Assembly (NCBI GenBank): GCA_022844165.1
Contig: JALHMH010000003.1
Coordinates: forward strand, 1 to 64,000
From: Lysobacterales bacterium
Lineage (GTDB): Bacteria; Pseudomonadota; Gammaproteobacteria; Xanthomonadales; SZUA-5
Direction of reading: 5' to 3'
Length of the DNA stretch: 64,000 nt
Position 1 is the stretch's first letter; every line of letters starts with the position of its first letter. Shown here piece after piece: positions 119 to 23,577 of this stretch. The position numbers and the translations under genes were made by a program. The notes beneath the pieces are model-generated. The model was not told the DNA's origin, did not search any database, and was given only the letters and a program-made list of their open reading frames with translations.

Positions 119-152
119 CGAGACGACAGCGCGGACGAGACGACAGCGCGGA
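119..152. repeat. 17-bp perfect tandem duplication abutting the element-end motif
   Basis: CGAGACGACAGCGCGGA at 119-135 and 136-152, running into GGACATCCA at 150-158. Confidence 0.95.
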
Positions 153-330
153 CATCCAGTTTTTTTGATTCTTCATGCGAACCTGTTAGACGTGCAAACG
201 TTTAGACGTCTGGATACAAGATTCAAACCGGGATGATTTTCGGCGCGCGATCAACGCCTCCAGACGCCAGCGGCGCCAGAAATCCCATGTGAGTATCTCA
301 GCCGGTCACAAGGCTCCGGGCATAGCCATG
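150..330 (-). mobile_element. 3'-end fragment of the HUH/RAYT-like element (last codons plus 3' flank)
   Basis: Near-identical to 340-520; begins with GGACATCCA. Confidence 0.9.
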
Positions 331-339
331 CGACAACGC

Positions 340-1631
340 GGACATCCAGTTTTTTTTGATTCTTCATGCGAACCTGTTAGACGTGCAAACGTTTAGACGT
401 CTGGACTAAAGATTTGAACCGGGATGATTTTCGGCGTGCGACCAACGCCTCCAGACGCCAGCGGCGCCAAGAATCCCATGTGAGTCTTTCAGCCGGTCAC
501 GAGGCTCCTGGCGTAGCCGATGCCTTTGAGCCACTTCCGTTTCCACTCTGCGGCTTTGGCCTCGAGTGCTTCAACGCTGGCAACGAAGCGCCAATATCCA
601 GAGCCGACGCCTTTGACATGCGCGGTCCAGTAGTTGGTGTCGAGTCCGAGCTTGCTCAGCGCAGTCGGCTCACGCTCATCGATCTTGCCGCGTTTGCCGG
701 GTCTGAGTTGGCGGCCGGTGTAGTCGACCAGCTCAATGTACTGGCGATTGCTCATCGCCAGTCTGGCGAAGGCTTGGTCTTTCAACATATCTAATCCAAG
801 CCGAACGCCGGCAATGGGTTGGATCGGCTCGTCCGCTTTGCTGGGATCTTTGCGCAGATCCTCGGCGCGCACCTGCACGCTGGTGTGATCGCTGCTCTCG
901 ATACTGTCGGCGATCCCGGCTCGCACGGGATTGAGATCGACGTAGGTCATCGCAGCGGCAAGTGCGGCTTCGTCGTCCAGGAGCTGGCACTTGAACCGCC
1001 CTTCCCAGAAGCGCCCTTTCACGTCATCTTCGGCATTCGCTTTGCGCGCGACGTACTCGTCGAGACAGCGCATGAACCAGGACAGATCCGCGAGCCGATC
1101 GCGGCGAGCCTCAAGTGCGGCTTTGTCCGCGCACAGCGCTGCGATTTTCACCGCGTTCTGCTCGGCCTCGCGCGCCGGGAACAACTGCACCCAGCGACTG
1201 GCAACTTCCTCGTCAGACCATTCGCGCGCGGCGGTCGGTTCAATCGACAGCACCACGTGCAAGTGGTTGCTCATCACGGCATAGCTGTAAACATCGACCG
1301 CAAAAATCCCAGCCAATTGCAGGATGCGCGAAGCGATCATTGGCTTGCGGTGCTCGTAGTCCACTCCCGTGATCGGATCAATGCCGCACAGCCACGCGCG
1401 CCGCACGCAACGTGCGACGCAGTGATAGAGGCCTTGCTGGCCTTCGGCGACAGTGAGGTGGCGGGCTTGAGTCATGCGGCGATCATTGCGATGACCGCTG
1501 AGCTTGTCTGTAGGGCGTACGCTGAAAGTGGTGTCAGAATTTTCCGACAGCGAATGTGATCGGGGTCATTTCGCCGCTTCGCCAGGTGGCTACGGGATTC
1601 CAATACCCATGGCGGCGAAGAGTGGTTGTCT
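340..1631 (-). mobile_element. HUH/RAYT-like element copy A
   Basis: Bounded by GGACATCCA (340-348) and the variant inverse motif TGGTTGTCT (1623-1631). Flanks are shared with copies B and C. Confidence 0.8.
489..1475 (-). CDS. HUH/Y1 transposase (RAYT / IS200-like), 328 aa
   Basis: YHCVARCVRR, YAVMSNHLHVV (HUH), RFWEGRFK, YVDLNPVRAG (catalytic Tyr). Confidence 0.92.
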   Translation of the reverse strand: MTQARHLTVAEGQQGLYHCVARCVRRAWLCGIDPITGVDYEHRKPMIASRILQLAGIFAVDVYSYAVMSNHLHVVLSIEPTAAREWSDEEVASRWVQLFPAREAEQNAVKIAALCADKAALEARRDRLADLSWFMRCLDEYVARKANAEDDVKGRFWEGRFKCQLLDDEAALAAAMTYVDLNPVRAGIADSIESSDHTSVQVRAEDLRKDPSKADEPIQPIAGVRLGLDMLKDQAFARLAMSNRQYIELVDYTGRQLRPGKRGKIDEREPTALSKLGLDTNYWTAHVKGVGSGYWRFVASVEALEAKAAEWKRKWLKGIGYARSLVTG

Positions 1632-1684
1632 CGGATCTCCACGGATCTCCATGGTCTCGGATCTCCATGGCTGTCTCGGACCTC
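1629..1684. repeat. Stutter repeat (TCT)CGGATCTCCA outside the copy A 5' end
   Basis: Four degenerate copies, including a second motif TGGCTGTCT at 1668-1676. Confidence 0.9.
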
Positions 1685-1685
1685 T

Positions 1686-1866
1686 GCAGCATAACCAGGC
1701 GCGTCGCACGCAACGTGCAATGCAGTAACAAAGGCCTTGCTGGCCCTCGGCGACGGTGAGGTGGCGGGCTTGGGTCATGCGGCGATCATTGTCGCGACGG
1801 CAAGGCGTGTCTGTCAGGCTAACGCCGAAACTTCTGTAGGAATTTTCTGGCGGCTGGTGGATGTCC
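1686..1866 (-). mobile_element. Diverged 5'-end fragment of the HUH element
   Basis: Encodes MTQARHLTVAEGQQGLCYCIARCVRRAWLC from ATG 1778 and ends at TGGATGTCC (1858-1866). Confidence 0.88.
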
Positions 1867-1991
1867 GTGATCTAGGATCTAGTGATCTAGGCACTCTGAA
1901 ACTTCTGTAGGAATTTTCTGGCGGCTGGTGGATGTCCGTGATCTACGCCGTGATCTACATCCGGATCTACGTCCGTGATCTACGTTCGATC
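1827..1991. repeat. 48-bp duplication of the element end plus GTGATCTA stutters
   Basis: 1827-1874 equals 1898-1945. GATCTA occurs seven times after the TGGATGTCC motifs. Confidence 0.92.
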
Positions 1992-2057
1992 CAAGTTACA
2001 CCTCGGCAATCGCAGCGCAGCTTTGGTCTTTCAGATTTCGCGCGAGGCGGCGGAGGA

Positions 2058-2837
2058 TCAGAGCGTCTCTCCACGGTCGTGGTTGTCGTCCGCTCGCAAC
2101 AGATCCAGCACGGCGCGTGCACTGTCCTGATGGAGGAGGGTCACTGCCGAGTGATCGAGGAACGTGGAAGCGTGCTGAGTCAAGGCCGCGCGCGTCGCGG
2201 GATCGGCGGCCAGGGTGTCCAGATCGACGTCATTGAAGTAGTCGGCGCGGGTAGCGCCGCGGCGGGTTTCAGCAACCAAGCCTTCAGCCGTCAATCCGGT
2301 ATCGAACCGCAAGTGGGCCAACAGATTCGCACGGAAAGGCTCAAGGCGTTCGAGCAGGGTGGCGTTCAATCGGGTGAAACTGTCGGTGAAGGTGTCGTAA
2401 TCCCTCAGCGCGTTGCGCAAGCGCTCGTCGCGCAGGATGCCGAGCTGCGCAGCGGACAGCATTTCGACATAGGTGGCTGCGCGTGGCGGAGCCGGATTCA
2501 TGCTGGTGACGTTGTTCAGATCGATCAGCATCGCGAATTTGTCGCGGGGCCAACGGCCCAACTTTTGCCAGCCGTCCAGATCAGCCAACAACTGGTTGGC
2601 TGAAGCGAGGTTTCTCTGCCATTTCATCGCGCTGCGGCTTAATCGCGCATCGATTTTTTCGAAGTCCAGGACAAGGCGGTCAATGACTTCCGCTTCGCGT
2701 TGCTGGGATTTTCGTTCCTCATTCCAGTTCGCCACCTGGATACCCAGGAACACACCCAGCACCAGCAGCACGAACTCGATGCTGATCGCGGTCCAGTTCT
2801 GTTCCTTCAGGTTCTGGGCGATGCGGCGAAGGATCAT
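2058..2837 (-). CDS. Membrane-anchored hypothetical protein, paralog 1 (DUF6090-like)
   Basis: N-terminus MILRR..QNWTAISIEFVLLVLGVFLGIQVANWNE (single TM). ATG overlaps the upstream stop. Confidence 0.8.
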   Translation of the reverse strand: MILRRIAQNLKEQNWTAISIEFVLLVLGVFLGIQVANWNEERKSQQREAEVIDRLVLDFEKIDARLSRSAMKWQRNLASANQLLADLDGWQKLGRWPRDKFAMLIDLNNVTSMNPAPPRAATYVEMLSAAQLGILRDERLRNALRDYDTFTDSFTRLNATLLERLEPFRANLLAHLRFDTGLTAEGLVAETRRGATRADYFNDVDLDTLAADPATRAALTQHASTFLDHSAVTLLHQDSARAVLDLLRADDNHDRGETL

Positions 2838-3619
2838 GGCGTATCCGTTTTCGGAGAACGGCCAAGTGCCGTGTCGATGCTGCGCTTGAGTTCGACGCAA
2901 GTGGCGCGCTGTATCCGGAGGATGTCGACGATTTGATGCGCCGAGTCCATCCAGAAGTTGAGCTCCGCCACCAGTTGCGGGTGGTCTGTGTACTTGCGCA
3001 GCACGCCCAGCGCGACCGCTTCATCCACGGGAGCCGCGCAGTCCCTGTGTTCCACCACCGCAAGGTCAAAGCACTGCGTGGCGATGTGGCGACCAATGCG
3101 ATAGGGCGTCAGCCCGCGCACCAGCCTTCGGTATTCCGGGTTGAACTTCAGGATGTAGTCGGCGCGCGCAAAGGTACCACTCACAAAATACTCGGTGAGT
3201 GCGGTGCGCAAAGCGGTGTCTCGCACCAAGCCGAGTTCGCCCGCCGAGCGCATCTCCTGATAGGTGCTGTCGACCGGCGAGTACGGCAGGATGCGGCTGG
3301 CCTGGGCAAATGACAGCACGGTCTGCCAGGCGGATCCGTCGGCCAGCCTGCCATCCTCCGCCCATCCGAGCGCGGCCTCGCCATAGGCGATGGAGCGACC
3401 GACATAGGCCGAGCGCTTGTCGATGGACGCCAACTCCTGATCGAGATCGTTGGATAGCCGTTCCAGGAAGTCGTGCGCACGCCGGTCTTCCAGTCGAGCC
3501 TCATTCCAGTTCGCCACCTGGATACCCAGGAACACACCCAGGACCAGCAGCACGAACTCGATGCTGATCGCGGTCCAGTTCTGTTCCTTCAGGTTCTGGG
3601 CGAGGCGGCGAAGGATCAT
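2834..3619 (-). CDS. Membrane-anchored hypothetical protein, paralog 2 (DUF6090-like)
   Basis: Same N-terminus; TYQEMRSAGELGLVRD motif. Confidence 0.8.
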   Translation of the reverse strand: MILRRLAQNLKEQNWTAISIEFVLLVLGVFLGIQVANWNEARLEDRRAHDFLERLSNDLDQELASIDKRSAYVGRSIAYGEAALGWAEDGRLADGSAWQTVLSFAQASRILPYSPVDSTYQEMRSAGELGLVRDTALRTALTEYFVSGTFARADYILKFNPEYRRLVRGLTPYRIGRHIATQCFDLAVVEHRDCAAPVDEAVALGVLRKYTDHPQLVAELNFWMDSAHQIVDILRIQRATCVELKRSIDTALGRSPKTDTP

Positions 3620-4404
3620 GGCGAAGCCTCCAGTTCGGCATCGATCAGCGTCACGATCTCGTCGATCATCTCGATCTGTCGCTGGCGCTGCGGCAGGGAA
3701 TTGAACGCGAAGCGCCGCAGCATCCTGACCGCCACCCCGAACTCACGATCGCCGCGCATGGCCGCAAGGTCGTAGACGATCAGCTCCTCGCGGATGCCGG
3801 ACAGCTGCGTGTCGTCCGCGACCGTCCGGCTGGTGACGTGCCGCAGCAGGATGGGAATCTGGCGCACGGCGTTGTCGTTGGTCATCCGCATCAGCTCCAG
3901 CATCACGCCGTGGAAGCGATCGTAGTCCGTGAGGCGGTCGCGAAGCCGGGGGTTGGCGATGCGGCTGAGCTGGCCGTTCGAACGCATTTCCACATAGGTC
4001 GCCGGCAACGGCGGCGGATTCCGGGTCTGCGCCAGCGCATCCAGGGCGCGGGCCATCCCTGCATGGTCGATCGGGGTGTCTTGCGAAGCCGCATCGTCGG
4101 CGAGCACGCGCGTCATCAGCAGCTCGCCGCCATCGATCGAGTCGCGGTAGAACCCGACGTGCTGCTGGGTTCTCTCGCGGATGCCGATCAGGTCGATCCG
4201 CAGCCGCTCGAGATACTGGGCCTGCAGGGCCGTCTGCTGCCTATCCTCGTTCCAGTTCGCCACCTGGATACCGACGAACACGCCGATCACCACGATCGCG
4301 AAGTCGATGCCGATCGCGGTCCAGTTCTGCGTGCGGATGTGTTCGGCCACGCGCAGCAGGCGGGTTGGGCGCGGTGTGATGGCCTCGGCGGTGCGCTCAC
4401 TCAC
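3616..4404 (-). CDS. Membrane-anchored hypothetical protein, paralog 3 (DUF6090-like)
   Basis: QNWTAIGIDFAIVVIGVFVGIQVANWNE; TYVEMRSNGQL. The GTG start at 4404 is inferred. Confidence 0.78.
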   Translation of the reverse strand: MSERTAEAITPRPTRLLRVAEHIRTQNWTAIGIDFAIVVIGVFVGIQVANWNEDRQQTALQAQYLERLRIDLIGIRERTQQHVGFYRDSIDGGELLMTRVLADDAASQDTPIDHAGMARALDALAQTRNPPPLPATYVEMRSNGQLSRIANPRLRDRLTDYDRFHGVMLELMRMTNDNAVRQIPILLRHVTSRTVADDTQLSGIREELIVYDLAAMRGDREFGVAVRMLRRFAFNSLPQRQRQIEMIDEIVTLIDAELEASP

Positions 4405-4506
4405 AAGATAGCCCCCGTTGTCGTCCTTGCGACACAAATACAGCGGGCCGTCGATATCGCCCAGCCACGCGGATCACGTTGCGGCGTTTCATCGCGGCGA
4501 GCTGTT

Positions 4507-5130: not shown

Positions 5131-5567
5131 TTGCGACCAGACGCCGCCCTAGAGCTTAAGTAGTTCCTCTGAAGGGATCAACTCCATCATCCAACGCCTT
5201 ACTTAAGCAAACAACTTCCGAACACGAACCGTGCCAATACGGCCGCTTTTTTGCCGTATCAGCTATTTCCATAACCTCCGGGCGTCGAGGATAACCCGCG
5301 TAAGGCGGATTCCCGTGTGGGGTGGAACCCGCACACACTTCATCGTGCGGATTCCACCGCCCCGCGCAGGGCACGATGGACGATGGTGTGTCGGGGCCGG
5401 ATGGTTCGGAGGGGTTCCGGACATCCACTCGTCGTCTCCTCAGCCGATGTCCGCCCATGGCGCATCGTCAGGCGTATTCACGGCGCGCTCCTGAGCGAAC
5501 TCATCGAAGTGTGCCGCGAATCGGTGGGTGCGCCAGGATGCTCTGGACGGGCGGTGCGCCAGTGAAC

Positions 5568-8500
5568 TCACTCGAAGCCGTCCGCGAACACGCCGTCGAC
5601 CACTTCGCCGATCAGTTCCACGCTCGCCTGCTGATCGTAACCGGCGGCCTCGTTGGACAGTCGAATGCGAGCATCTGCCGTTTGCAGGCCCACGCGCGAG
5701 GGATCGCCAGCGAGCCGGTACGCGTAAGTGCAAGACGCGCCGGGCGCCAAGGTGGCGGGACAGGCGCCGACCAGGGTGAACGGTGTGGCCAACGATCGAT
5801 TCACGGTGAGCGTCACATCGCTGGTATTGACGATAGTCACCGAGGCGCTGTTGCTTGCATCGACCGGAATGCGGCCAAGATCGATGCGAGTCGGCGTCAC
5901 TTGCGCCAGTGTGCCGCTGCCCTGCCCGTTCAAGCTGATCATCACCTGGCGCGACTGCGCGCCTTGCGAAACGGTCAGGAAGCTGTTGAGCGCGTAGCGA
6001 ATCGCCGCACGCGGCAGGAAGCTGAAATCGATCAGACAGCTATTGCCTGGCGTGGTCGGGTTTGCGCACGGCGGACCGCGTAACCATGCCACTTCGCTGG
6101 GCGGAAGGTTGCCGCCGCTGACGCTGATGTTGCTGGCCGACAGATTCTGGGTGGCGGTCAGCAAAGTGGCGCTTTTTCCGACTGGGACCAGGCCGAAGTC
6201 GAGCGCGACCGGACGCGTCGAGCTGATTTGCGCGCCTACGGCGCCGACGCCGAGCAAGCCAATATCGAAGCTGTCGCTGAAGTCCGAGAAGAAGGAGTCT
6301 TCGAAGAAATTCAGGCGCGAGCTGCTCGCAAACCGGCCCGCAACGCTTGGCTCGAAGCGGTAGACAAGGCTGCACGATGCGCCCGCTGCGAGCGTGGCGC
6401 CGCAGCTCGATACTGGACCGGCAAAGCCGACACTGCTGGTGAGTGCGCCGCCGCTCAAGCGCAGTAGTGCGGTGGTCGGATTGGCGATGGCGATACTGAC
6501 TGACGTGCTGGTGCCGACGCCCTGCGTGCCGAAATCGATACGCGCCGGCCCCAGATCGACCAGCCGTCCAGTGCCGGTGCCGCGCAGATCGACGTTCGCC
6601 AGCGTGGTCGGCGCGCTACCGATCGTGGCGCTCACGCGCGCCAATCCGGCAAACGTCGCCCCGGCTCCCAGGCGCGGCCGGAAGGTCAGGTTCAAGGTAC
6701 ACGAAGCACCGGCCGCCAGCGGCACGGTGCAGGCGCCATCGTCGACCGAGAACGCGGATGAAAGCAGCGACACTGGATCGCCCAATAGCTCGATCGTTGG
6801 ATCGAACGGCGCGCTCGAATCGTTGCGCACCAGCACCGGCAAAGTCACCGCTCGACCAACGCGCACCGCACCGAAGTCGATGCGCGTGGGCGTCACGGTG
6901 AAACGCTGCGGCGCTTGCGCCTGCGCTGCAGCGACGCTGAGGGTATAGCTGCGGCTGGCGCTGGCGCCTGCGCTGTCGATCGCGCGCACGGTAAAGGTGA
7001 AACTGCCTACCGCTTGCGGCCTGCCGCTCAACACACCACTTTGCGCTTCGAGCGCCAATCCCGGCGGTATCGCGCCGGCGCTGATCGACCAGCCGCTGAC
7101 GATCCCGCTGCCCCCGGTGGTCTCGAAATCGACGCTGTACAACGCTCGCTCGGTGGCGCCTGGGAGCGGTGGGGCGTTGACGATCGCCAACGGCACCGGT
7201 ACTGGCACCACTTTGAGTGTGTACTGGCGGTAAGCAATGTTGGAAGCGCTGTCGTTGACCCGCACAACGAACCCAACATCGCCGACCGATGTGGGTGTGC
7301 CCGACAAAATGCCGCTGGTGGACAGCGAGAGGCCCACCGGCAAGCTGCCGTTGGCGATGCCCCAACCACTGTAGACGCCGCTGCCACCCACGGCTTGGAA
7401 GCCCAGCGAGTAAGCGCTGCCGACCGTCGCCGGCGGCAGCGGCGATGGCGTCGCGATGGCGAGCGCCGGCAGAGCGCCCACCGTGATGGCGTAGCCGCCC
7501 GTGGCCTGCGTACCGTCGCTATCGGTGACACGCACCGTGAAGTTGAACGTGTCGACCACTGTCGGCGTGCCGGACACTGCCCCGCTGGCGGCCAGCGTCA
7601 GTCCCGTGGGCAGGCTGCCGCCTACGATCCTCCAATCGATGTAGGTGCCGGAGCCGCCGATCGCCTGGAACGAGAGCGAGTACGGCGCTTGCAGTGTCGC
7701 TGGCGGGAGCGGCGGCGGCGTCGAAATCTCGAGTGCGCGTGTCACCGTTGCCGGGGAGGAAAACTCCGAGGTGTTGTTTGCTGCGGAGAGCGGTTGCGGC
7801 GGTTGATCGCCGGCCGGCGGCACATCGACCAGCAGCAGATCCGTCGCCGTCGCCACCATCGCCTTGCCGCTGGTGTCGCCACTGCCGCCCACGGTGGCGG
7901 TACAAACGCCGGCCACGCAGCCTGCGCCGATCGCCACGCCTGCGGTGTTGAGGGTGACCGTCTGCTCGCCGAGATGGGTCATACCCGCGCCGTCGGCAGC
8001 CAGCTCGTAGAAGTCGATGCGCAGCGGCCGCGATGGCGAAACTGGCCGCAGCGGCAAGGTCCAACGCAGCGAGGTGCCATTGCCGCCGAAAGTGGGGCCG
8101 GCACCGGCGCCGCATTCGACCGGCATCGGACTGCCGCTGCACAGGATCGGGGCGATCTGATCGAGGTTGGCGTAGTTTTGCGGCAGAGCGTTTGGATTGA
8201 AGCCGTCGGGCGCGTTCGGCACCCGTTCCAGATCGATGCCGATGCCGCTGCCGCCGCGCGCGTTGCCGTAGATCGCGTTGCGTTGAATGACGTTGGCCCA
8301 GCCGGTGGCGGCCGAACCTTGGCGCAGCGCCACGCCATTGCGGCCATTGCCGGCAATGATGTTGATGTCGTTCGGTGCCGGGCCACCGATCTGGCTGCTG
8401 CTGGCTTGAAAAAGGTGCACGCCATCGCCGACATTGCCGAGCCCGATGACGGGCGCCAGACCGGTCGGCGGCGACACGCCGATGAAGTTCCCTTGCACCT

Positions 8501-9914
8501 GGGTTCGCAGCGCTTCGTTGCCGCGCAACAGGATGCCGTGACGCCCATTGGCGAGAATCAGATTCAGGCGAACGCGCACATCAGGTACGGTGATCACCAT
8601 TCCATTGCCGCTGTTGCCGTATTGCAACTGGCCGAGCGGCGTGGAACCGGCGGGAAACGTGGCCAGGCCGACCACGTTGGCGAACACATCCACACCGCGG
8701 CTCGCCCCGCTGATCAGCATGCCGCCCGAGGTGTCGTTGGCGACGACATCAAGATCGGCGCCGCCGGCGTCGCTGAGGTTGTCGCTGATGGTATTCGCCG
8801 GGCCGATCAACGCGGCAAATCCGGTTGGGTTGTCCAGACCCGGATCGTTGGGGCCGTTCGGATGCGAATCGAGCGTGATGCCGTTCTCGGCGTTGCCGAC
8901 GCTGGTCGGCGCACTGCCGAGCCCGACGAGGTTGCCGGCCACGAAATTCGGCAACAGAACCGCGCCCGATTGCAGCGCAATGCCGCTTCCGTTATTGCCG
9001 CTCACGAGATTGCCGGGGCCGATGAAGTTACCCCAGGCCGTGCCTTGCAGACGAATGCCATCTTTGTTGCCCGCGCCGCGGCCGTTGGGCACCGCAGACA
9101 ATCCATCGGCGCTCAAGCCGACGATGTTGCCGACGATAAAGGTGTTCACCGTGCCCTGACCGGTCAGCAGAATGCCGACACCCTGGTTGCCCGACACCAC
9201 GTTGCCGCTGATGATCGTCGGATTGGCCACCACCGACAGCAACGATTGCAGCGCTGACGAGTACGCCGCGATCGCGCCAAACGTGGCCGGCGGATCGGCG
9301 ATCAAACCGTCGATATTGGGTGCGGATGCGGGCGGCACCACGCTTCCCGACACCAGGATGCCATCGCCGGTGTTGGCATCGCTCGCCGAGGACGCCGCGC
9401 TGGCGCCAGGGTTGGTGCCGATGCGATTGCCGCTCACCACATAACCGTTGCCCGCCAGCGAGAGGCCCGAACCTTGGCAGCGGCGCAGCACAAAATTGCG
9501 CACCGTGGAGTTGCGCGCGCCGTTGGGACTGACGGCGGTGGGGACATCGCGCAAATCAAAGCAGCCGTTCGCCAACGCACCGTCGATGACCATGCGCCCG
9601 CCGCTGGCAGTATTCGCCGGGTTGCTGCCATCGAAGGTTGTGCGGCTGGTCACCGTCGGCAAAGAGGCGCTGAGCACGATGGTTTGCACCGAGGCATCGA
9701 AGGTGACGGTGTGTGGGCCGGCCAGCGCGTTGCCTTGCAAAATCGCTGCGCGCAGTGTGCAGGTGGCCGCATTGGCGGGCGAGACCGTGCTGCAAACATT
9801 GTCGGCGGTGTTGCTATCGGCCCCCGAGCCGTTGCTGCGAACCACGAAGTTGGCTGCGGGCGCAGACCCGATGGTCGCGCCGAGCGCCAGAGCGAAGGCG
9901 TAGATGCGATGCAT
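5568..9914 (-). CDS. Large secreted/surface protein: CSLREA-like N-terminus, beta-helix, Ig-like repeats, C-terminal VFADGFE
   Basis: Signal peptide MHRIYAFALAL; CTLRAAI; GN-rich beta-helix repeats; three GSLPxGL Ig repeats; IDFG repeats. Confidence 0.85.
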   Translation of the reverse strand: MHRIYAFALALGATIGSAPAANFVVRSNGSGADSNTADNVCSTVSPANAATCTLRAAILQGNALAGPHTVTFDASVQTIVLSASLPTVTSRTTFDGSNPANTASGGRMVIDGALANGCFDLRDVPTAVSPNGARNSTVRNFVLRRCQGSGLSLAGNGYVVSGNRIGTNPGASAASSASDANTGDGILVSGSVVPPASAPNIDGLIADPPATFGAIAAYSSALQSLLSVVANPTIISGNVVSGNQGVGILLTGQGTVNTFIVGNIVGLSADGLSAVPNGRGAGNKDGIRLQGTAWGNFIGPGNLVSGNNGSGIALQSGAVLLPNFVAGNLVGLGSAPTSVGNAENGITLDSHPNGPNDPGLDNPTGFAALIGPANTISDNLSDAGGADLDVVANDTSGGMLISGASRGVDVFANVVGLATFPAGSTPLGQLQYGNSGNGMVITVPDVRVRLNLILANGRHGILLRGNEALRTQVQGNFIGVSPPTGLAPVIGLGNVGDGVHLFQASSSQIGGPAPNDINIIAGNGRNGVALRQGSAATGWANVIQRNAIYGNARGGSGIGIDLERVPNAPDGFNPNALPQNYANLDQIAPILCSGSPMPVECGAGAGPTFGGNGTSLRWTLPLRPVSPSRPLRIDFYELAADGAGMTHLGEQTVTLNTAGVAIGAGCVAGVCTATVGGSGDTSGKAMVATATDLLLVDVPPAGDQPPQPLSAANNTSEFSSPATVTRALEISTPPPLPPATLQAPYSLSFQAIGGSGTYIDWRIVGGSLPTGLTLAASGAVSGTPTVVDTFNFTVRVTDSDGTQATGGYAITVGALPALAIATPSPLPPATVGSAYSLGFQAVGGSGVYSGWGIANGSLPVGLSLSTSGILSGTPTSVGDVGFVVRVNDSASNIAYRQYTLKVVPVPVPLAIVNAPPLPGATERALYSVDFETTGGSGIVSGWSISAGAIPPGLALEAQSGVLSGRPQAVGSFTFTVRAIDSAGASASRSYTLSVAAAQAQAPQRFTVTPTRIDFGAVRVGRAVTLPVLVRNDSSAPFDPTIELLGDPVSLLSSAFSVDDGACTVPLAAGASCTLNLTFRPRLGAGATFAGLARVSATIGSAPTTLANVDLRGTGTGRLVDLGPARIDFGTQGVGTSTSVSIAIANPTTALLRLSGGALTSSVGFAGPVSSCGATLAAGASCSLVYRFEPSVAGRFASSSRLNFFEDSFFSDFSDSFDIGLLGVGAVGAQISSTRPVALDFGLVPVGKSATLLTATQNLSASNISVSGGNLPPSEVAWLRGPPCANPTTPGNSCLIDFSFLPRAAIRYALNSFLTVSQGAQSRQVMISLNGQGSGTLAQVTPTRIDLGRIPVDASNSASVTIVNTSDVTLTVNRSLATPFTLVGACPATLAPGASCTYAYRLAGDPSRVGLQTADARIRLSNEAAGYDQQASVELIGEVVDGVFADGFE

Positions 9915-10191
9915 TGCTTGGACTCCCGGTCGCAAGACGCGACTCTGGAGGCATGAATGCTGTCGAGAGCGCGAAGCGAACAGGGCGCAGCGAAAACCGA
10001 AGCGCGCGGGCCTGGCGGTTACCCCGACGCGGCGCTGAGCGGTCGTTGCAGCGACATCAGCCGTGCGCAAGTCGGTTTCGCGCATGTCCGTATTCGCTCG
10101 CTATGGATTGGGCGCTGTGCTTGATCCCTGCGCGAACGATCCCTGAATGCGCGACCGCGTCTTGCGCGAACTGCGCTTTGAATCGATGCTT

Positions 10192-10393
10192 TGATAGAGG
10201 CCTTGCTGGCCTTCGGCAACAGTGAGGTGGCGGGCTTGAGTCATGCGGCGATCATTGCGATGACCGCTGAGCTTGCCTGTAGGGCGTACGCTGAAAGTGG
10301 TGTCAGAATTTTCTGACAGCGAACGTGATCCGGGTCATTTCGCCGCTTCGCCAGGTGGCACGGGATTCCAATACCCATGGCGGCGAAGAGTGG
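10192..10393 (-). mobile_element. 5'-end fragment of the HUH element
   Basis: Near-identical to 1423-1625; holds the first about 17 codons from ATG 10244. Confidence 0.9.
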
Positions 10394-13905: not shown

Positions 13906-13980
13906 TTAGGCCGAAATCGCCAACTGCTCGCGGTGATAGAGCCGAGAGGCCACGAACACCACGATCGTAAATGCCGAACG
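13906..13980 (-). pseudogene. Probable 3' remnant of an ABC permease gene
   Basis: AFTIVVFVASRLYHREQLAISA* resembles the C-terminus of NatB-like permeases (recalled, not searched). The upstream part is replaced by the stutter. Confidence 0.45.
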
Positions 13981-14099
13981 CTGCCGAACGCGGAGCCGAA
14001 CGAACGCGGACAAACGCGGACATCCCGAACGAACACGGAACGAACACGAACGCGGAACGCGAACGCGGAACGAACACGCGGAACGAACACGGACATCCA
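13973..14099. repeat. Long irregular GAACG/GAACACG/CGCGGA stutter
   Basis: About 120 bp of permuted short units ending in GGACATCCA (14091-14099), with a partial motif at 14018-14025. Confidence 0.92.
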
Positions 14100-14464
14100 G
14101 TTTTTGACTCTTCACGCGAACCAGTTAGACGTGCAAACGTTTAGACGTCTGGACACAAGATTCGAACCGGGATGTTTTTCGGCGCGCGATCAACGCCTCC
14201 AGACGCCAGCGGCGCTAAAAAAATCCCATGTGAGTATCTCAGCCGGTCACGAGGCTCCTGGCATAGCCGATGCCTTTGAGCCACTGTTGCTTCCACTGTG
14301 CGGCTTTGGCCTCGAGCGCTTCCGCGCTGGCAACCAAGCGCCAATAGCCAGAGCCGACGCCTTTGACGTGCGCGTTCCAGTAGTTGGCATCCAGTCCAAG
14401 CTCGCTCAGTGCCGTCGGCTCACGCTCATCGATCTTGCCGCGTTTGCCGGGCTTGAGTTGGCGG
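14091..14464 (-). mobile_element. 3'-end fragment of the HUH element, inverted relative to copy B
   Basis: Encodes RQLKPGKRGK...GIGYARSLVTG* (stop at 14239) plus the conserved 3' flank. Confidence 0.92.
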
Positions 14465-14525
14465 GCTCTTCGGGACACCCAGCAGCCGTCAGTAGGGGCT
14501 CTTCGGGACACCCAGCAGCCGTCAG
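14463..14525. repeat. 30-bp direct duplication of the copy B 5' end
   Basis: GGGCTCTTCGGGACACCCAGCAGCCGTCAG at 14463-14492 and 14496-14525. Confidence 0.95.
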
Positions 14526-15727
14526 AAAATTCCGACACCACTTTCAGCGTACGCCCTACAGACAAGCTCAGCGGTCATCGCGATGATCGCCGCATGACTC
14601 AAGCCCGCCGTCTCACCGTTGCCGAAGGCCAGCAAGCCTTCTATCACTGCGTTGCACGATGCGTGCGGCGCGCGTGGCTGTGCGGCATTGATCCGATCAC
14701 GGGCGTGGACTACGAGCACCGCAAGACGATGATCGCGGCGCGCATCGTGCAATTGGCCGGGATCTTTGCGGTCGATGTTTACAGCTACGCCGTGATGAGC
14801 AACCACTTGCACGTGGTGCTGTCGATTGAACCGGCCGCCTCGCGCGATTGGTCTGATGAGGAAGTTGCACGGCGCTGGGTGCAATTGTTCCCGGCGCGCG
14901 AGCCCGAGCAGAACGCGGTGAAAATCGCAGCGCTGTGCGCGGACAAAGCCGCACTTGAGGCTCGCCGCGATCGGCTCGCGGATCTGTCCTGGTTCATGCG
15001 CTGTCTCGACGAGCACATCGCGCGCAAGGCGAATGCCGAAGATGATGTGACGGGGCGCTTCTGGGAAGGCCGATTCAAATCTCAGTTGCTTGACGACGAA
15101 GCCGCGCTCGCCGCGGCGATGGCGTACGTCGACCTCAATCCGGTTCGAGCCGGGATCGCCGACTGCATCGAGAGCAGCGATCACACCAGCGTGCAGATGC
15201 GCGCCGAAGAACTGCGCAAAGATCCCGGCAAAGCGGACGAGCCGATCCAACCCATTGCCGGCGTTCGGCTTGGATTAGATATGTTGAAAGACAAAGCCTT
15301 CGCCAGACTGGCGATGAGCAATCGCCAGTACATTGAGCTGGTGGACTACACCGGCCGCCAACTCAGACCCGGCAAACGCGGCAAGATCGACGAGCGTGAG
15401 CCGACGGCACTGAGCAAGCTTGGCCTCAACACCAACTACTGGACCGCACACGTCAAAGGCGTCGGCTCTGGTTATTGGCGCTTCGTTGCGAGCGTGGAAG
15501 CACTCGAAGCCAAAGCGGCTGAGTGGAAGCGACAGTGGCTCAAGGGCATCGGATATGCCCGGCGTCTTGTGACGGGCTGAGAAACACACATGTGGACTTT
15601 TGGCGCCGCTGGCGTCTGGAGGCGTTGGCTGCGCGCCGAAAATCGCCACCATGGGAACCACCATTTCGTACGCCTAGACGTTTACGCGGCAAAAATCCTA
15701 AAGGACTGGAACGGAAAGTGGGTGTCC
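14506..15727 (+). mobile_element. HUH/RAYT-like element copy B
   Basis: Bounded by GGACACCCA (14506-14514) and TGGGTGTCC (15719-15727), a perfect 9-bp inverted pair. Confidence 0.85.
14594..15580 (+). CDS. HUH/Y1 transposase (RAYT / IS200-like), 328 aa
   Basis: Near-identical to copy A, with HUH and Tyr motifs intact. Confidence 0.92.
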   Translation: MTQARRLTVAEGQQAFYHCVARCVRRAWLCGIDPITGVDYEHRKTMIAARIVQLAGIFAVDVYSYAVMSNHLHVVLSIEPAASRDWSDEEVARRWVQLFPAREPEQNAVKIAALCADKAALEARRDRLADLSWFMRCLDEHIARKANAEDDVTGRFWEGRFKSQLLDDEAALAAAMAYVDLNPVRAGIADCIESSDHTSVQMRAEELRKDPGKADEPIQPIAGVRLGLDMLKDKAFARLAMSNRQYIELVDYTGRQLRPGKRGKIDEREPTALSKLGLNTNYWTAHVKGVGSGYWRFVASVEALEAKAAEWKRQWLKGIGYARRLVTG

Positions 15728-15736
15728 GCGGAACTT

Positions 15737-16600
15737 CTAGGAATTGTCCCAGTCCCGCGGCTCCGCGCCTTCGAGTAGCAGCAGCGTGATCACCCGGTCC
15801 CGGTCAGTGTAGGAATGCTTGAACTCCCGCAACTTCATGTGTGCGCCCTCCTCGGCGCACCAGATCGCCGCGGAGCACTCCACGCCATCGAAGCATTGCA
15901 CCACGCTGGCGTCTGCGGCCAGGGTGCCGGCGAACGGCTCTTGCGCGGAATCTGTTTGGCGGACTCGGGCGCGGGTCTTGAGGGCGTTGCGGCTGGCTCG
16001 CTGGTACTTGAGGAAGCCCTGATCCCAGTGGATCAAGATCGCGCGCTGGTCCGTGGCTTCGATGAAGCGCAGGCACAACGCTTCGAAGGAGACTTCGAAG
16101 GTGCGCGCGATCTCGCTCAGCAGGTGCAGCGTGACTTTGCGTTGATCGCCGAGGAAGCGCCGCAGCAGATCCATGGGCATGAGCAGGTTGCTGGCGAATT
16201 CGTTGGCCTCGCGTTCGATGTTGCGGCCATCGAACTGCCCTGAGGTGACACCGCTGTTGTCGCATTCGAAGCGGTCTTGCAGCGCACGGTGCAGGATGAA
16301 GTGGCCCAATTCGTGCGCGATGGTGAAGCGGCTGCGCTCGGGCGTCGCGTGTTCCTTGAAGAGGATGCCCCATTCGGCGGGATCGTCCGGGTTGCGGACC
16401 AGGCAGCCCTCGAAGGCGCTGATGTCGAGCGGCCTCGGTGGCTTGATCTCACGGACGCCCTTGCCGTACGGCGTTTCCGGAAGCATTTGGCCAAGCACAT
16501 CCAGATCGGTGGCTTCGGGCATGGTCGCGCCATGCCATAGGCGCAACCACTTCAGCGCGGTGGTGGCCGCTACGAAGGGGGTAAGGTCCTGCGCGTTCAC
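15737..16600 (-). CDS. ImmA/IrrE family metallopeptidase
   Basis: RFTIAHELGH; EREANEFASNLLMP; FEVSFEA. Confidence 0.9.
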   Translation of the reverse strand: MNAQDLTPFVAATTALKWLRLWHGATMPEATDLDVLGQMLPETPYGKGVREIKPPRPLDISAFEGCLVRNPDDPAEWGILFKEHATPERSRFTIAHELGHFILHRALQDRFECDNSGVTSGQFDGRNIEREANEFASNLLMPMDLLRRFLGDQRKVTLHLLSEIARTFEVSFEALCLRFIEATDQRAILIHWDQGFLKYQRASRNALKTRARVRQTDSAQEPFAGTLAADASVVQCFDGVECSAAIWCAEEGAHMKLREFKHSYTDRDRVITLLLLEGAEPRDWDNS

Positions 16601-16944
16601 GACTTCGGTTCACCCTCGCCGCGACCCGGGAACATCAGCTTGAGCGCCTGACGGTAGCGCTCCTTCTCCTCGTCGGTCATGCCAGCGTATTCGCGAAAGA
16701 ACGCGACGTCCTCGGGCTTGGCCTCGTGAGCCTCGCGGGGCGTTTCCTCCATCAGGTCCTCGACTGTGACGCCGAAGGTCTTGGCGAGGAGGAAGACGCG
16801 TTCGGCCGACGGTCGTTGGCCATCCTTCATCTCCAGTTCCCAGATGTAGCCGCGGGTGCAGCCGACCGCGTCAGCCACCTGCTGCAGGGTCATGCCTTTG
16901 GCTTCGCGTAGGCGCCGAAGCCGGGTTCCGAGTGTGGTTGCCAT
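16597..16944 (-). CDS. XRE-family HTH regulator
   Basis: LGTRLRRLREAKGMTLQQVADAVGCTRGYIWELE. Confidence 0.9.
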   Translation of the reverse strand: MATTLGTRLRRLREAKGMTLQQVADAVGCTRGYIWELEMKDGQRPSAERVFLLAKTFGVTVEDLMEETPREAHEAKPEDVAFFREYAGMTDEEKERYRQALKLMFPGRGEGEPKS

Positions 16945-16998
16945 CGGTCTGCTTCTACTGGACAGGCGTCTCAAGACGTGAGCCACGAAGTATAGCCA

Positions 16999-17076
16999 CG
17001 AGATACATGGACGGGGTGAAGCGCTCTCGATGATTGACAAGCGGAAATCCGGGTACTAGCCTTTCGCTGTATCTCG
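16999..17076 (+). promoter_or_regulatory. Putative sigma70 promoter flanked by a 9-bp inverted pair (candidate XRE operator half-sites)
   Basis: TTGACA (17034-17039), 17-nt spacer, TAGCCT (17057-17062); CGAGATACA (16999-17007) and TGTATCTCG (17068-17076). Confidence 0.5.
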
Positions 17077-19331: not shown

Positions 19332-19504
19332 CTGCCGACCCTCCGTTCTCTCAACCCGATTGCTGCTCCAATCGTCCCTGCCAACCGCTCTTGGCGACAC
19401 CCGTTGCCCTCGGCAAAGGCCTTGGCCTCGGGCGTGAAATCGCCCGTGGTCACTGCTGATCCCGCTCCGGAGTGAGTGACAGACTCCCGGATCGAATTGG
19501 AGGC

Positions 19505-20863: not shown

Positions 20864-21515
20864 AGCCCGATCCGCGTACCGTGCGGATGCGTTCGCTGCT
20901 GAAGCCGCGATCGATTTTCGAGCGCAGTCGACTGATGTGCGTCTCGACGATATTGGTCTTGGGGTCGAAGTGGAAATTCCACACCGATTCCAACAGCATC
21001 GTGCGCGTCACGACGCGGTCGGCGTTTCGCAACAGGAACTCGAGTAGCCGGAATTCCGTCGGCTGCAGATCGATCTCCTGCCCCGCGCGGCTGACCCTGC
21101 GCTTGATCAGGTCCATGATGATGTCACCGGCGTGCAGCTTGTCCTGGCTCGCAAGTGGCGGGCGCCGGCCCAATGACTGCACACGAGCGAGCAACTCAGC
21201 AAAGGCAAACGGCTTGACCAGGTAGTCGTCGCCACCCGCCTCGAACCCTTGCACCTTGTCGCCGATGCCGCCCATGGCAGTGAGCAGCAGCACTGGCGTA
21301 CCGATTGCACTCGCGCGCAGCGCCTTCAACAAGGCCAGCCCGTCCAGCTTCGGCAACATGCGATCGACGATCAGCGCGTCGTAAGCATCGCCGATTGCCA
21401 ACATGAGGCCTTCGTGGCCATCGCTGGCCAGATCGACACTATGGCCGTGCTCCCGCAAACCGCGGGCGACGTAGCTCGCCGTTTCGCAATCGTCTTCGAT
21501 TAGCAGAATTTTCAT
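20844..21515 (-). CDS. OmpR-family response regulator
   Basis: KILLIEDD, DRMLP, DDYLVKPF, IRTVRGSGY. Confidence 0.95.
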   Translation of the reverse strand: MKILLIEDDCETASYVARGLREHGHSVDLASDGHEGLMLAIGDAYDALIVDRMLPKLDGLALLKALRASAIGTPVLLLTAMGGIGDKVQGFEAGGDDYLVKPFAFAELLARVQSLGRRPPLASQDKLHAGDIIMDLIKRRVSRAGQEIDLQPTEFRLLEFLLRNADRVVTRTMLLESVWNFHFDPKTNIVETHISRLRSKIDRGFSSERIRTVRGSGYVLDAR

Positions 21516-21575
21516 GCTGTCTCCGAGCGCTGCGGGAGGCTTGCGACTCCCGCAGCAGTATCGGACCCGTTTGGA

Positions 21576-21878
21576 TCAGTCGTCGATGTCTTCGCGAGCG
21601 CCGATCACAGCGCCGCTGATGCCATCCACCGCAACATCGAACACGCGCTCGCCGACCACCACGCTGACCTCATAGGCGGGCTTGAAGCTGTCGTCATCGA
21701 GGCTCGCCTCGATCGCACGCCCGCCTTGGTGGTTTTCAGCTGCAGCAATCGCCTGCGTGAGACTGATGCTGGTTTGTTCGAGCAGACGGATGTCGCCCTT
21801 GTCCGCGGCAACCGCGGCGACCGAAACGCCACCAGCCAGCAGGGCAACGATGAAACCAAGTTTGTAGTTGAGGTTCAT
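21576..21878 (-). CDS. PepSY domain protein
   Basis: Signal peptide; ISLTQAIAAA...YEV...VDGISGAVI. Confidence 0.85.
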   Translation of the reverse strand: MNLNYKLGFIVALLAGGVSVAAVAADKGDIRLLEQTSISLTQAIAAAENHQGGRAIEASLDDDSFKPAYEVSVVVGERVFDVAVDGISGAVIGAREDIDD

Positions 21879-21974
21879 GGGTCAACTTCCTTTTGGACAG
21901 GCACACTGCCTGGGTGCTGACCTTTCTACCCGGTCAACGTCGAATTCCGATGTCCGCTCCTATACAGCTTCACA

Positions 21975-22116
21975 ATGTTCGGGCCGATACGCCAGATCGC
22001 AGCCGGCCCGCCGATGGATGGGGGCATGGAGTACGTGGCGCTGGAGGAGCGATTCCACCTGCGAGCCGATGTTGTCTCGTTCATTGGCGCACCCGGGGCC
22101 GGCGTACCGCGACGTC
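21975..22116 (+). pseudogene. Fragment of a diverged paralog of 18414..19331
   Basis: PIRQIAAGPPMDGGMEYVALEERFHLRADVVSF aligns with PTRQISAGVPTDAGVEWLALEERFRLRGEVVSF. Confidence 0.85.
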
Positions 22117-22177
22117 AGAATCGCGGACAGCCACGGTGCAGAATCGCGGACAGCCACGGTGGCGGAATCGCAGCCAC
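22116..22177. repeat. 23-bp tandem duplication plus a partial third copy at the copy C 5' end
   Basis: CAGAATCGCGGACAGCCACGGTG at 22116-22138 and 22139-22161. Confidence 0.95.
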
Positions 22178-23420
22178 GCGGCGAACCACCCTAGGGAGCC
22201 GGATCACGTTCGCTGTCAGAAAATTCCGACACAACTTTCAGCGTTTGCCTGACAGACAAACGCATTGGTGATCGCCATGATCGCCGCATGACCCAAGCCC
22301 GCCACCTCACCGTCGCCGAAGGCCAGCAAGCCTTCTACCACTGCGTTACGCGCTGCGTGCGGCGCGCGTGGCTGTGCGGCATTGATCCGATCACGGGAGT
22401 GGACTACGAGCACCGCAAGCCGATGATCGCGGCGCGCATCCTGCAATTGGCTCGGATTTTTGCGGTCGATGTTTACAGCTATGCCGTGATGAGCAACCAC
22501 TTGCACGTGGTGCTGTCGATTGAACCGACCGCCGCGCGCGATTGGTCTGATGAGGAAGTTGCCCGGCGCTGGGTGCAATTGTTCCCGGCGCGCGAGGCGG
22601 AGCAGAACACGGCGAAAATCATCTCGTTGCGCGCAGACAAAGCTGCACTTGAGGTCCGCCGCGGTCGGCTCACGGATCTTTCGTGGTTTATGCGCTGTCT
22701 CGACGAGCACATCGCGCGCAAGGCGAACGCCGAGGATGACGTGACGGGGCGCTTCTGGGAGGGCCGATTTAAATCTCAGTTGCTTGAAGATGAAGCAGCG
22801 CTTGCCGCGGCGATGGCGTACGTCGACCTCAATCCGGTTCGAGCCGGGATCGCCGACAGCATCGAGAGCAGCGATCACACCAGCGTCCAGGTGCGTGCCG
22901 AGGAACTGCGCAAAGATCCCAGCAAAGCGGACAAGCAAATCCAACCCATTGCCGGCGTTCGGCTTGGATTGGATATGTTGAAAGACAAAGCCCTCGCCAG
23001 ACTGGCGATGAGCAATCGCCAGTACATTGAGCTGGTCGACTACACCGGCCGCCAACTCAAGCCCGGCAAACGCGGCAAGATCGACGAGCGAGCGCCGACG
23101 GCGTTAAGCAAACTCGGACTCGACACCAACTACTGGACCGCGCACGTCAAAGGCGTCGGCTCAGGTTACTGGCGCTTCGTTGCCAGCGTGGAAGCACTCG
23201 AAGCCAAGGCAGCGCAGTGGAAACGGAAGTGGCTCAAAGGCATCGGCTACGCCCGGAGCCTCGTGACCGGCTGAGAAACTTACATGGGATTCTTGGCGCC
23301 GCTGGCGTCTGGGGGCGTTGGTCGCGCGCCGAAAATCATCCCGGTTCGAATCTTGAGTCCAGACGTCTAGACGTTTGCACGTCTAACAGGTTCGCATGAA
23401 GAAACAGAAACTGGATGTCC
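22148..23420 (+). mobile_element. HUH/RAYT-like element copy C
   Basis: Bounded by GGACAGCCA (22148-22156) and TGGATGTCC (23412-23420). Confidence 0.85.
22288..23274 (+). CDS. HUH/Y1 transposase (RAYT / IS200-like), 328 aa
   Basis: Near-identical to copies A and B. Confidence 0.92.
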   Translation: MTQARHLTVAEGQQAFYHCVTRCVRRAWLCGIDPITGVDYEHRKPMIAARILQLARIFAVDVYSYAVMSNHLHVVLSIEPTAARDWSDEEVARRWVQLFPAREAEQNTAKIISLRADKAALEVRRGRLTDLSWFMRCLDEHIARKANAEDDVTGRFWEGRFKSQLLEDEAALAAAMAYVDLNPVRAGIADSIESSDHTSVQVRAEELRKDPSKADKQIQPIAGVRLGLDMLKDKALARLAMSNRQYIELVDYTGRQLKPGKRGKIDERAPTALSKLGLDTNYWTAHVKGVGSGYWRFVASVEALEAKAAQWKRKWLKGIGYARSLVTG

Positions 23421-23577
23421 GCGTTGTTGCCCCAAATCAGCGCAAATCGCCCCACGTCGATCCCGCAACATCCAACCGCGACGATACCGCCACCCATGAC
23501 ATCGAATTCGACCGATGTCGCGACGACACCCTCCAAAAGCTATTTCCTTGGGCGTGACAGACGCCACGCAGGGGCTC

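Follow-up and report, generated by a model that had tools for sequence, protein, structure and literature searches.

A region of some 23 kb at the start of a contig from a Lysobacterales bacterium raises the question of what kind of genetic entity brings together three intact copies of a gene for one 328-amino-acid HUH nuclease, with broken pieces of further copies, and of how these genes are related to the repeated motifs and breakpoints around them. The stretch analysed here, called the window, comprises positions 1-64000 of contig C3 of the host genome (G000; 4,680,174 bases in a 59-contig draft, 60.5% G+C). A first-pass annotation had proposed that each gene is bracketed by an inverted 9-bp motif, that its enzyme recognizes this motif and nicks at a fixed offset from it, and that the result is a local genome-scrambling system rather than a plain insertion sequence (IS). 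The best overall explanation, to which we give a probability of about 0.6, is a multi-copy element of the TIRtron type (a tyrosine-transposase gene flanked by terminal inverted repeats, or TIRs) that encodes a TnpA-Y1 protein of subclass 2.3 and whose ends duplicate from a fixed boundary. The identity and architecture of the element are held with high confidence: positions 119-23430 are part of a variable genomic island that holds, besides three intact copies of an element of ~1.3 kb, five or more broken ones.

The three intact genes (copy A, 489-1475, minus strand; copy B, 14594-15580, plus strand; copy C, 22288-23274, plus strand) are each an open reading frame (ORF) of 328 amino acids, and the annotation's description of them as HUH/Y1 genes bracketed by an inverted motif is confirmed in their ORFs, motifs and catalytic residues. 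In an alignment of 36 homologs, N70 and H73 of the HUH motif (N70-H71-L72-H73) are invariant and H71 is at least 90% conserved. The single tyrosine, Y178, is also at least 90% conserved, falls within a helix of the structural model (residues 169-180) and opens the string YVDLNP (178-183), in which V179, D180, L181 and P183 are invariant; a WE motif is present as FWEGRF at 156-161. The AlphaFold (AF2) model built on the homolog alignment (predicted local distance difference test, pLDDT, 80.4; predicted template modelling score, pTM, 0.84) places helices (80-150) between strands 71-78 and 161-166 and ends in a tail (186-328). Its top structural match is the Escherichia coli repetitive extragenic palindrome (REP) transposase 4ER8 (4er8_A; VIA-align Z 11.2, root-mean-square deviation 3.1, 160 of 165 residues aligned). 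Foldseek also ranks 4ER8 first (E 1.5e-3), followed by the TnpA proteins of ISDra2 and IS608, all with E of at least 1.5e-3, while Rep domains score just Z 3.5-5 against the model in the structural search and whole-model fold searches matched nothing beyond the HUH core. Profile scores are 19.8 bits (E 9e-4, cut-off 23) for Pfam PF01797 (Y1_Tnp) and 38.5 bits (E 1e-9, cut-off 80) for NCBIfam NF047646 (REP_Tyr_transpos); these values reflect profiles broken by an insertion of 55-80 amino acids, not the fold. A family search placed 6775 of 8000 scored candidates at E <= 0.001, mostly of ~319 amino acids, and many family members carry the JGI name 'REP element-mobilizing transposase RayT'.

The protein is a single-tyrosine (Y1) HUH nuclease of TnpA-Y1 subclass 2.3, within the class resembling the REP-associated tyrosine transposases (RAYTs). 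The subclass is assigned because length, WE motif, YVDLNP, helical insertion, C-terminal tail and the occurrence of multiple moderately similar copies match its published description, which gives a median of 325 amino acids, the Y motif YVDLNP, a WE motif and several copies per genome with 74.8% mean within-genome identity (Quentin, Siguier, Chandler and Fichant 2018, PMC6006769). The proteins described here have 328 amino acids, the identical YVDLNP, the WE motif, an insertion between beta3 and alphaC and a long C-terminal tail, and the host carries eight full-length copies of moderate mutual identity. Two differences from that account are seen: the HuH motif is NHYH in PMC6006769 and NHLH here, the central residue being a variable hydrophobic position, and the subclass is reported there mainly from Chromatiales and Alteromonadales, whereas the gene family is present in all 22 sampled genomes of the host's bacterial family (3 to 58 matches per genome).

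The motif GGACANCCA occurs 15 times in the window (starts at 150, 340, 1858, 1929, 5419, 14091, 14473, 14506, 15719, 22125, 22148, 23412, 31507, 31524 and 31551), where 1.68 matches are expected and 0 of 100 dinucleotide shuffles reached 15, so that the annotation's count of 15, with about two expected by chance, was correct at every position. Over the whole genome, however, 125 matches in 4,680,174 bases amount to 1.7 per 64 kb, which is background. The excess of GGACANCCA is local and due to copies of one element; it is not a dispersed REP-like repeat, because genome-wide the motif stays at background. A reading of the locus as a family of REPs or REPINs (paired, inverted REPs) was rejected on the same count and on the lack of a family of short inverted pairs, only 4 inverted motif pairs 40-700 nt apart being present in the whole genome.

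Within the intact copies the motif has a regular place. Copy A (331..1686, minus strand) has its right boundary at ~331 and its right-end motif at 340-348; copy B (14463..15736, plus strand) has left-end motifs at 14473 and 14506 and a right-end motif at 15719-15727; copy C (22115..23431, plus strand) has left-end motifs at 22125 and 22148 and a right-end motif at 23412-23420. The forward motifs of copies B and C lie 88-163 nt 5' of the gene, and a reverse motif lies ~137 nt past the stop codon in copies A, B and C alike. The left end of copy A carries the variants TGGTTGTCT (1623-1631) and TGGCTGTCT (1668-1676) in degenerate tandem units on the minus strand (Tandem Repeats Finder, TRF, 1632-1651), in keeping with the variant end noted at first. 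An alignment of the flanks of the eight full-length host copies makes the motif the inner part of a longer terminal inverted repeat of ~19-20 bp, in which 9-11 purine-rich nucleotides form the outer part and the motif forms the rest. At the left end the outer part precedes the relaxed motif GGACANNCA, and the right end closes with the reverse complement.

The same arrangement is found elsewhere in a comparison set of 50 full-length homologous genes from 14 other genomes (43-62% amino acid identity, the top of one hit list). The relaxed motif GGACANNCA lies upstream of 31 of the 50 genes and its reverse complement downstream of 36, with both ends marked in 22, and 30 of the 31 innermost upstream motifs are at -91 to -84 from the ATG. 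The 400 nt upstream contain 52 forward motifs and 1 reverse (2.64 per kb) and the 500 nt downstream contain 75 reverse motifs and 1 forward (3.05 per kb), while the gene bodies hold 2 and 5 motif copies in 48 kb (0.04-0.10 per kb). An oriented motif at a fixed distance from the gene is shown across many genera, and enrichment of the motif around homologs, on which the original proposal depended, is clear in these counts.

The physical boundary of the element lies 8-13 nt outside the motif. For copy C both boundaries (22114/22115 and 23431/23432) are fixed independently of the annotation. On the left, a contig of metagenome run X4 tracks the flank with 4 differences in 613 nt and diverges after 22114, 10 nt before the motif at 22125; the flanks were compared with assembled contigs of four metagenome runs (best share 0.48). 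On the right, an unrelated 197-nt repeat begins at 23432, 11 nt past the motif end at 23420. Comparable offsets recur at other junctions in the window. Fragment 150-330 and copy A form a tandem (TRF period 191, two copies over 141-523) whose unit begins 9 nt ahead of each motif; the inverted fragment 14091-14464 ends 8 nt ahead of motif 14473; a left-end fragment begins at ~1686-1690, 10-13 nt past 1676; and the stop of an ImmA-like ORF at 15737 is 9 nt past the motif end at 15727. A truncated copy in the sister species G001 meets the following copy at a junction 9 nt outside the latter's motif, and in four other genomes homology between paralogs begins at -95 to -97 in most of the 40 best pairs. 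The junctions listed in the annotation thus hold with offsets of 9, 8, 10-13 and 9 nt, and breakpoints are placed non-randomly with respect to the motif, as are array edges. The clustering of breakpoints 8-10 nt outside the motif is real with a spread of 8-13 nt, and it marks the element's own end because the inverted repeat extends beyond the motif, which is its inner half. The supposed paralog remnant ending at 22116 fared less well: the X4 contig backs a boundary near 22114, but the remnant itself is just a weak similarity (72-74%) to two loci. No direct target duplication is present at the copy C boundaries, where the right-flank repeat may have arrived later. No empty site was found in G001, probed with five stretches around copies A-C and the copies on contigs C1, C48 and C10; this comparison matched only element DNA and a few other repeats, and the housekeeping flanks are ~74% identical and not collinear.

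Nearly every end has its own direct tandem, whose unit is either just the outer part or the outer part together with the motif and a variable inward stretch. The left end of copy B is a perfect 33-nt unit present twice (14463-14525), that of copy C a 23-nt unit present 2.4 times (22116-22171), and on contig C47 a 152-nt right-end unit is present three times; other copies in the host genome have units of 48, 53, 38, 26, 25 and 16 nt. Genome-wide, 19 of 109 TRF arrays (score at least 60, period at least 8) are no more than 100 nt from one of the 60 edges of element-related DNA, compared with 0.43 expected. Around the 50 comparison genes, the share of sequence in tandem repeats is 8.35% in the upstream zone and 15.2% in the downstream zone, as against 0.14% within the genes and 2.1-3.4% in the far flanks (which often hold the ends of a neighbouring copy), and at least one end array is present at 38 of the 50. 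Periods of 8-16 nt account for 43 of 69 array clusters (mode 11-14 nt), 26 clusters contain the motif, and a single end can carry as many as eight motif copies in a row (as at L056, L057 and L062). Upstream arrays have the innermost motif as their inner limit and extend outward. Much longer units also occur: in G001 a unit of 1067 nt, reaching from the right terminus as far as codon ~20, is present again at 98.5% identity and followed by a series of left-end fragments that each reach the terminus; a contig of metagenome run X3 has a joint from 23425 to 22356 of the same right-terminus-to-internal kind; and in G008 a unit of 1212 nt is repeated at 99.4% identity. At both sites where the boundary is known from outside (the left end of copy C and a G001 end beside a block resembling 5409-5622), the array starts exactly at the boundary. 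The unit sequences are unrelated between copies, and therefore the arrays arise anew at each copy. The ends of the element are hot spots for tandem duplication that starts at the boundary, with units from 9 nt to ~1.2 kb, and these boundary-anchored arrays are its new and mechanistically suggestive feature.

Among known systems the closest is the TIRYT/TIRtron, in which RAYT-like genes are flanked by terminal inverted repeats with the consensus GGGGWSAS that occur as dimers or clusters (Di Nocera, De Gregorio and Rocco 2013, PMC3733652). The annotation had treated inverted ends on a Y1 enzyme as unprecedented, a view that this description overturns. As in TIRtrons, a tyrosine-transposase gene has terminal inverted repeats in place of REPs, with a motif at a similar distance from the gene. 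The last six letters of GGGGWSAS are the first six of GGACAC/GGACAG, and the full eight-letter consensus is present at some ends (L028 and L052 on the left, L044 and L049 on the right), while the commonest form in the window, GGACAT, fails the last S. The differences are that the passages of PMC3733652 on these elements describe no multi-copy habit, no boundary-anchored duplications of up to 1.2 kb and no selection analysis, and that the 26 published TIRYTs fall in subclasses 2.1 (20), 2.2 (4) and 2.5 (2) and none in 2.3 (PMC6006769). Inverted repeats, a motif or end arrays are not described in the main-text account of subclass 2.3 in PMC6006769, and among the papers published since 2018 that a wider search listed (subscription journals and supplements being outside the scope), none seems from its title or the opening of its abstract to describe its ends. 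The element is of TIRtron type and belongs to a subclass without previously reported ends in the literature examined.

Resemblance to other HUH systems is more distant. The RAYT/TnpA-REP protein (4ER8) shares the Y1 HUH fold, the class 2 Y---NP motif and a gene bracketed by inverted cognate copies; in contrast to RAYT/REP/REPIN systems, the element described here has no genome-wide repeat family, a non-hairpin cognate, a protein twice as long and many gene copies. The IS200/IS605 family has TnpA proteins of ~130-150 amino acids with Y---Q, and IS200 copies within a genome are 99.4% identical (PMC6006769, Table 1), compared with 328 amino acids, Y---NP and copies 88-96% identical here. Members such as IS608 and ISDra2 resemble the element in having a Y1 HUH core, a small size and, as at copy C, no visible target duplication, but their ends are subterminal hairpins and not inverted repeats. 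A hairpin-ended IS200/IS605 identity was ruled out on the inverted repeats, the Y---NP motif and the 328-amino-acid length. In rolling-circle HUH transposons (IS91, ISCR, Helitrons), a synthesis-priming nick is known to yield one-ended events and multiple or tandem ends as by-products; their enzymes carry two tyrosines or are members of Rep families, and the elements do not end in inverted repeats. The likeness lies in nick-primed events of the kind inferred for the anchored duplications, and the fold link is only that of HUH enzymes in general.

The paralogs are old, under purifying selection and clustered. Five close copies in the host genome (90.5-92.8% nucleotide identity) have a synonymous divergence (dS) of 0.25-0.37, with dS typically ~0.3, and a ratio of nonsynonymous to synonymous divergence (dN/dS) of 0.07-0.16; in other genomes, within-genome paralogs are 88-96% identical and the sole near-identical pairs are tandem. 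Five element intervals fall in 23.4 kb of the window, compared with 33 in the whole genome, and series of two or three copies, spaced by a few kb, are found in G002, G003, G004, G006, G008, G012, G014, G016 and G020. Among 30 genes from four genomes, pairs less than 20 kb apart resemble each other more than the remaining pairs do (mean 0.895, a value that none of 5000 permutations reached; the pairs are not independent and the loci not randomly sampled), and in three of these genomes the most similar pair are neighbours. Plasmids seldom carry the family: of 72,556 records, 14 have a match, none reaching 60% identity, and most of these are very large replicons from Alteromonadales and Vibrionales.

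A mechanism of breaking and resealing could account for these patterns, and it is offered tentatively, at somewhat less than even odds. The protein, perhaps through its subclass-specific insertion or its tail, would read GGACANNCA and break one strand at the outer boundary; such a fixed-offset break is plausible because boundaries, fragment junctions and the outer edges of arrays all lie ~8-13 nt outside the motif. Starting at the freed 3'-OH, synthesis would then proceed inward, usually stalling at the bound protein after 11-14 nt and sometimes going further, and rejoining of the displaced strand would duplicate the copied stretch just inside the break. On this scheme the commonest unit, 11-14 nt, would correspond to the distance from boundary to motif, and long units would be rarer. 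Slippage against the bound protein is an alternative route that would yield the same short arrays and would explain long anchored units less well. New copies would appear mostly nearby, as excision and insertion in single-stranded DNA at one replication fork would predict. Single-strand, fork-coupled transposition is established for IS608 and ISDra2, and the local clustering of copies agrees with it. A more specific version, in which the subclass 2.3 enzyme is a site-specific 'stuttering' nickase that acts on GGACANNCA, breaks ~10 nt outside it, itself reseals the displaced strand onto the end newly made by host synthesis and so adds one tandem unit per cycle, of 11-14 nt to over 1 kb, must be regarded as doubtful.

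Of the competing explanations, an ordinary IS survives best, its breakpoints being the outcome of nested or adjacent insertion followed by decay and its arrays the outcome of generic slippage in purine-rich, low-complexity DNA. Inverted ends, numerous copies and fragments that often lie at contig ends, microhomology at some unit borders and the predominance of short periods are all as such an element would leave them. Slippage of this kind, however, leaves unexplained why arrays are concentrated at element ends and nearly lacking elsewhere, why they begin at the boundary wherever this can be checked, why they recur across 14 genomes with unrelated units, and how simple sequence would produce units of 152, 191, 1067 and 1212 nt. 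Copies with dS of ~0.3 and dN/dS of ~0.1, none of them identical and dispersed, are also unlike a typical IS burst, and this explanation is considered unlikely.

Rather less probable is the genome-scrambling system of the first-pass annotation, in which a nick at a fixed offset drives deletions, inversions and duplications of host DNA and no unit is transposed. The fixed-offset boundary agrees with it, as do the many truncated copies that end at the terminus of another copy (one of them, 13972-14464, inverted with respect to copy B), the geneless solo motifs at 5419 and 31507-31559, and an island that is not syntenic with the sister species. End-anchored duplications are indeed abundant, but the rearranged pieces that can be identified are all element ends or copies and none are host genes. 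Intact two-ended units of ~1.3 kb recur in different contexts and genomes, as expected for whole-unit movement, and loss of synteny in an island rich in mobile DNA has many possible causes.

A domesticated, immobile nuclease family, with the motif arrays serving as iteron-like sites for regulation or DNA processing (control of forks or recombination), is more improbable again. Strong purifying selection, old paralogs, the lack of observed near-identical dispersed copies and the rarity on plasmids are compatible with domestication, which has been argued for RAYT groups (PMC5581495). A settled host gene would not, however, be expected to leave numerous truncated copies and fragments and copies at contig ends, to vary from 3 to 58 matches among related genomes, to have flanks not shared with the sister species, or to show a related strain's contig diverging exactly at the boundary. 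Mis-joins of a repeated element during assembly, suggested by the many copies at the ends of contigs in a 59-contig draft, are a negligible explanation, as most arrays are shorter than a sequencing read, the same architecture is present in 14 other independently assembled genomes, and the X3 contig, from another study, has the same right-terminus-to-internal joint as G001.

Several observations weigh against the multi-copy TIRtron-type element with boundary-anchored duplicating ends that is preferred here. The comparison loci come from related genomes and from the top of one list, so that the counts are not independent samples, and the exact motif is missing upstream of 19 and downstream of 14 of the 50 genes, where variants are visible. 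Both the Pfam and the NCBIfam scores are under their curated cut-offs. The comparison with G001 yielded no empty site that would fix the exact ends, the target sequence or any target duplication. The oriented motif and the offset of the boundary are conserved, as the annotation's idea of motif recognition required, and a nick at a fixed offset is plausible; ordinary slippage at a protein-bound, purine-rich site could also yield short arrays with no nick. Recent transposition to new sites is not supported, because no two dispersed copies in the sampled genomes are near-identical: the best non-tandem pair (98.2% gene identity) is on a single contig with 12.7 kb between its members, and for most pairs identity is 88-94%.

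Besides the intact copies, the window contains the remains of others. A right-end fragment of an older copy (A', 121..330, minus strand) holds an outer-part tandem (121-154), a motif (150-158), the right end and the last ~14 codons. On the far side of copy A, a left-end fragment (1686..1983, minus strand; tblastn 1778-1677) retains the first ~34 codons and the left end with a motif at 1858-1866, and includes a 53-nt left-end duplicate on the same strand (1893-1945, motif 1929-1937) with short 8- and 25-nt tandems alongside (TRF 1867-1890 and 1935-1983). Another left-end fragment (10184..10393, minus strand; tblastn 10244-10185, and blastn) has the first ~20 codons and upstream left-end DNA without an exact motif. 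Next to copy B and inverted with respect to it is a right-end fragment of an older copy (13972..14464, minus strand; tblastn 14478-14242) with a motif at 14091-14099, the right end and the last 79 codons, and with an outer-part array on the same strand (13972-14093) of ~10-11-nt units (TRF 14027-14093, period 11, 6.2 copies). Two further sites resemble termini only. A solo module on the plus strand (5409..5622) has a motif at 5419-5427 preceded by an outer part of ~10 nt, and this 214-nt block is 93% identical to a G001 block that abuts an element end array. A solo array on the plus strand (31507..31559) consists of three motifs with the same short outer part in a region unique in the genome; tblastn found no gene remnant there, and neither a transposase gene nor element-internal sequence adjoins it. 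In the host genome as a whole, tblastn detected 29 pieces on 16 contigs, eight of them full-length (65-95% amino acid identity) and many at contig ends. The host also has a second, short Y1 gene (C48:21393-21728, plus strand; a 170-amino-acid open frame) that passes the PF01797 cut-off with 72 bits and is probably a classical RAYT or an IS200-type TnpA.

Downstream of the gene, copies B and C share a GC-rich palindrome with a conserved tail (15602-15628 and 23295-23321). A post-stop palindrome of this kind, 20-28 nt past the stop and with a 5-8-bp stem, a 3-5-nt loop and three stem variants, is present in ~36 of the 50 homologous genes; it lies ~90 nt from the right end and has no T-run and no Rfam match, and Rfam recorded no known RNA family in window positions 1-33000. 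These palindromes were counted by scanning each sequence in place of alignment-based folding; RNAalifold on 26 post-stop sequences gave no consensus structure, MAFFT having set two palindrome types one column out of register. A perfect hairpin at the left end was dropped as a candidate, being no commoner there (21 of 50) than in control windows (96 of 200). From the post-stop palindrome (about +54) to the right-end motif, a stretch of ~90 nt (window ~15630-15718 and 23322-23411) forms a variable cassette, common to some copies and unrelated in others both in G000 (A, C and C54 versus B, C1, C28 and C48) and in G003, and on this sequence comparison the ends of the element look mosaic.

The island that surrounds the copies contains accessory genes for a 1505-amino-acid protein with immunoglobulin-like (Ig) repeats, a methyltransferase, an ImmA/IrrE-Xre pair, a two-component system and a Phd antitoxin, and it is not syntenic with G001. 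The ImmA/IrrE-type M78 peptidase (287 amino acids) and its Xre-type helix-turn-helix (HTH) partner (147 amino acids) occupy 15737-17040 on the minus strand and adjoin copy B. Insertion of copy B may have set the present C-terminus of the peptidase, because its stop lies 9 nt beyond the right-end motif of that copy. The 1505-amino-acid protein (5568-10085, minus strand; He_PIG/ASH/HYDIN Ig-like repeats) has element debris on both sides, the 5409-5622 module and the 10184-10393 fragment, and from 5490 onwards its DNA is 99% identical to G001:C17:93640-95147. Just ahead of the solo motif at 5419 stops a repeat of ~113-125 nt (5292-5416). G000 has three partial copies of it at other sites and G001 no fewer than 15, one of which is directly past right-end arrays of the element (G001:C24:76598-76719); this repeat may be carried along as a passenger, or it may be a second element with these ends as its target.

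Other repeated or shared DNA lies beside copies A and C. Three 135-nt direct repeats (2712-2846, 3494-3628 and 4240-4374; 96% and 69% identity) are within adjacent ORFs (2834-3619, minus strand, with a DUF6090 match, and 3616-4437, minus strand) that form a small tandem paralog array beside copy A. The 197-nt repeat to the right of copy C (23432-23630) is 97-98% identical to G000 C42:34633-34829, to C8:129303-129500 and to the first 127 nt of C27, and a part of ~39 nt (about 23594-23637) has many copies in G001; it is a candidate end of another IS, or a candidate miniature inverted-repeat transposable element (MITE). Further along, positions 25059-27000 are 98.6% identical over 1942 nt to G001:C22 (locus L017) in surroundings that are not syntenic, and are probably recently shared mobile DNA.

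Subclass 2.3 is very large, and its defining survey, in its main-text account, gave no cognate DNA (PMC6006769). The present analysis supplies a candidate DNA partner for these enzymes, namely a conserved 9-bp core that has a set orientation and distance relative to the gene, with a likely break ~10 nt outside it. If the stuttering nickase were real, it would be a form of protein-programmed, locus-specific tandem duplication distinct both from the peel-and-paste movement of IS200/IS605 and from the spread of REPINs, and it could explain the end arrays, the truncated tandem copies, the local clusters and the occasional capture of neighbouring DNA (as in the 5409-5622 module). The old paralogs, the purifying selection, the clustering and the lack of recent dispersed copies bear on the debate over whether RAYTs are selfish or domesticated. 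The boundary-anchored arrays may be a natural record of the activity of the enzyme and, if they depend on it, would represent a new route of local duplication for a mobile-element nuclease.

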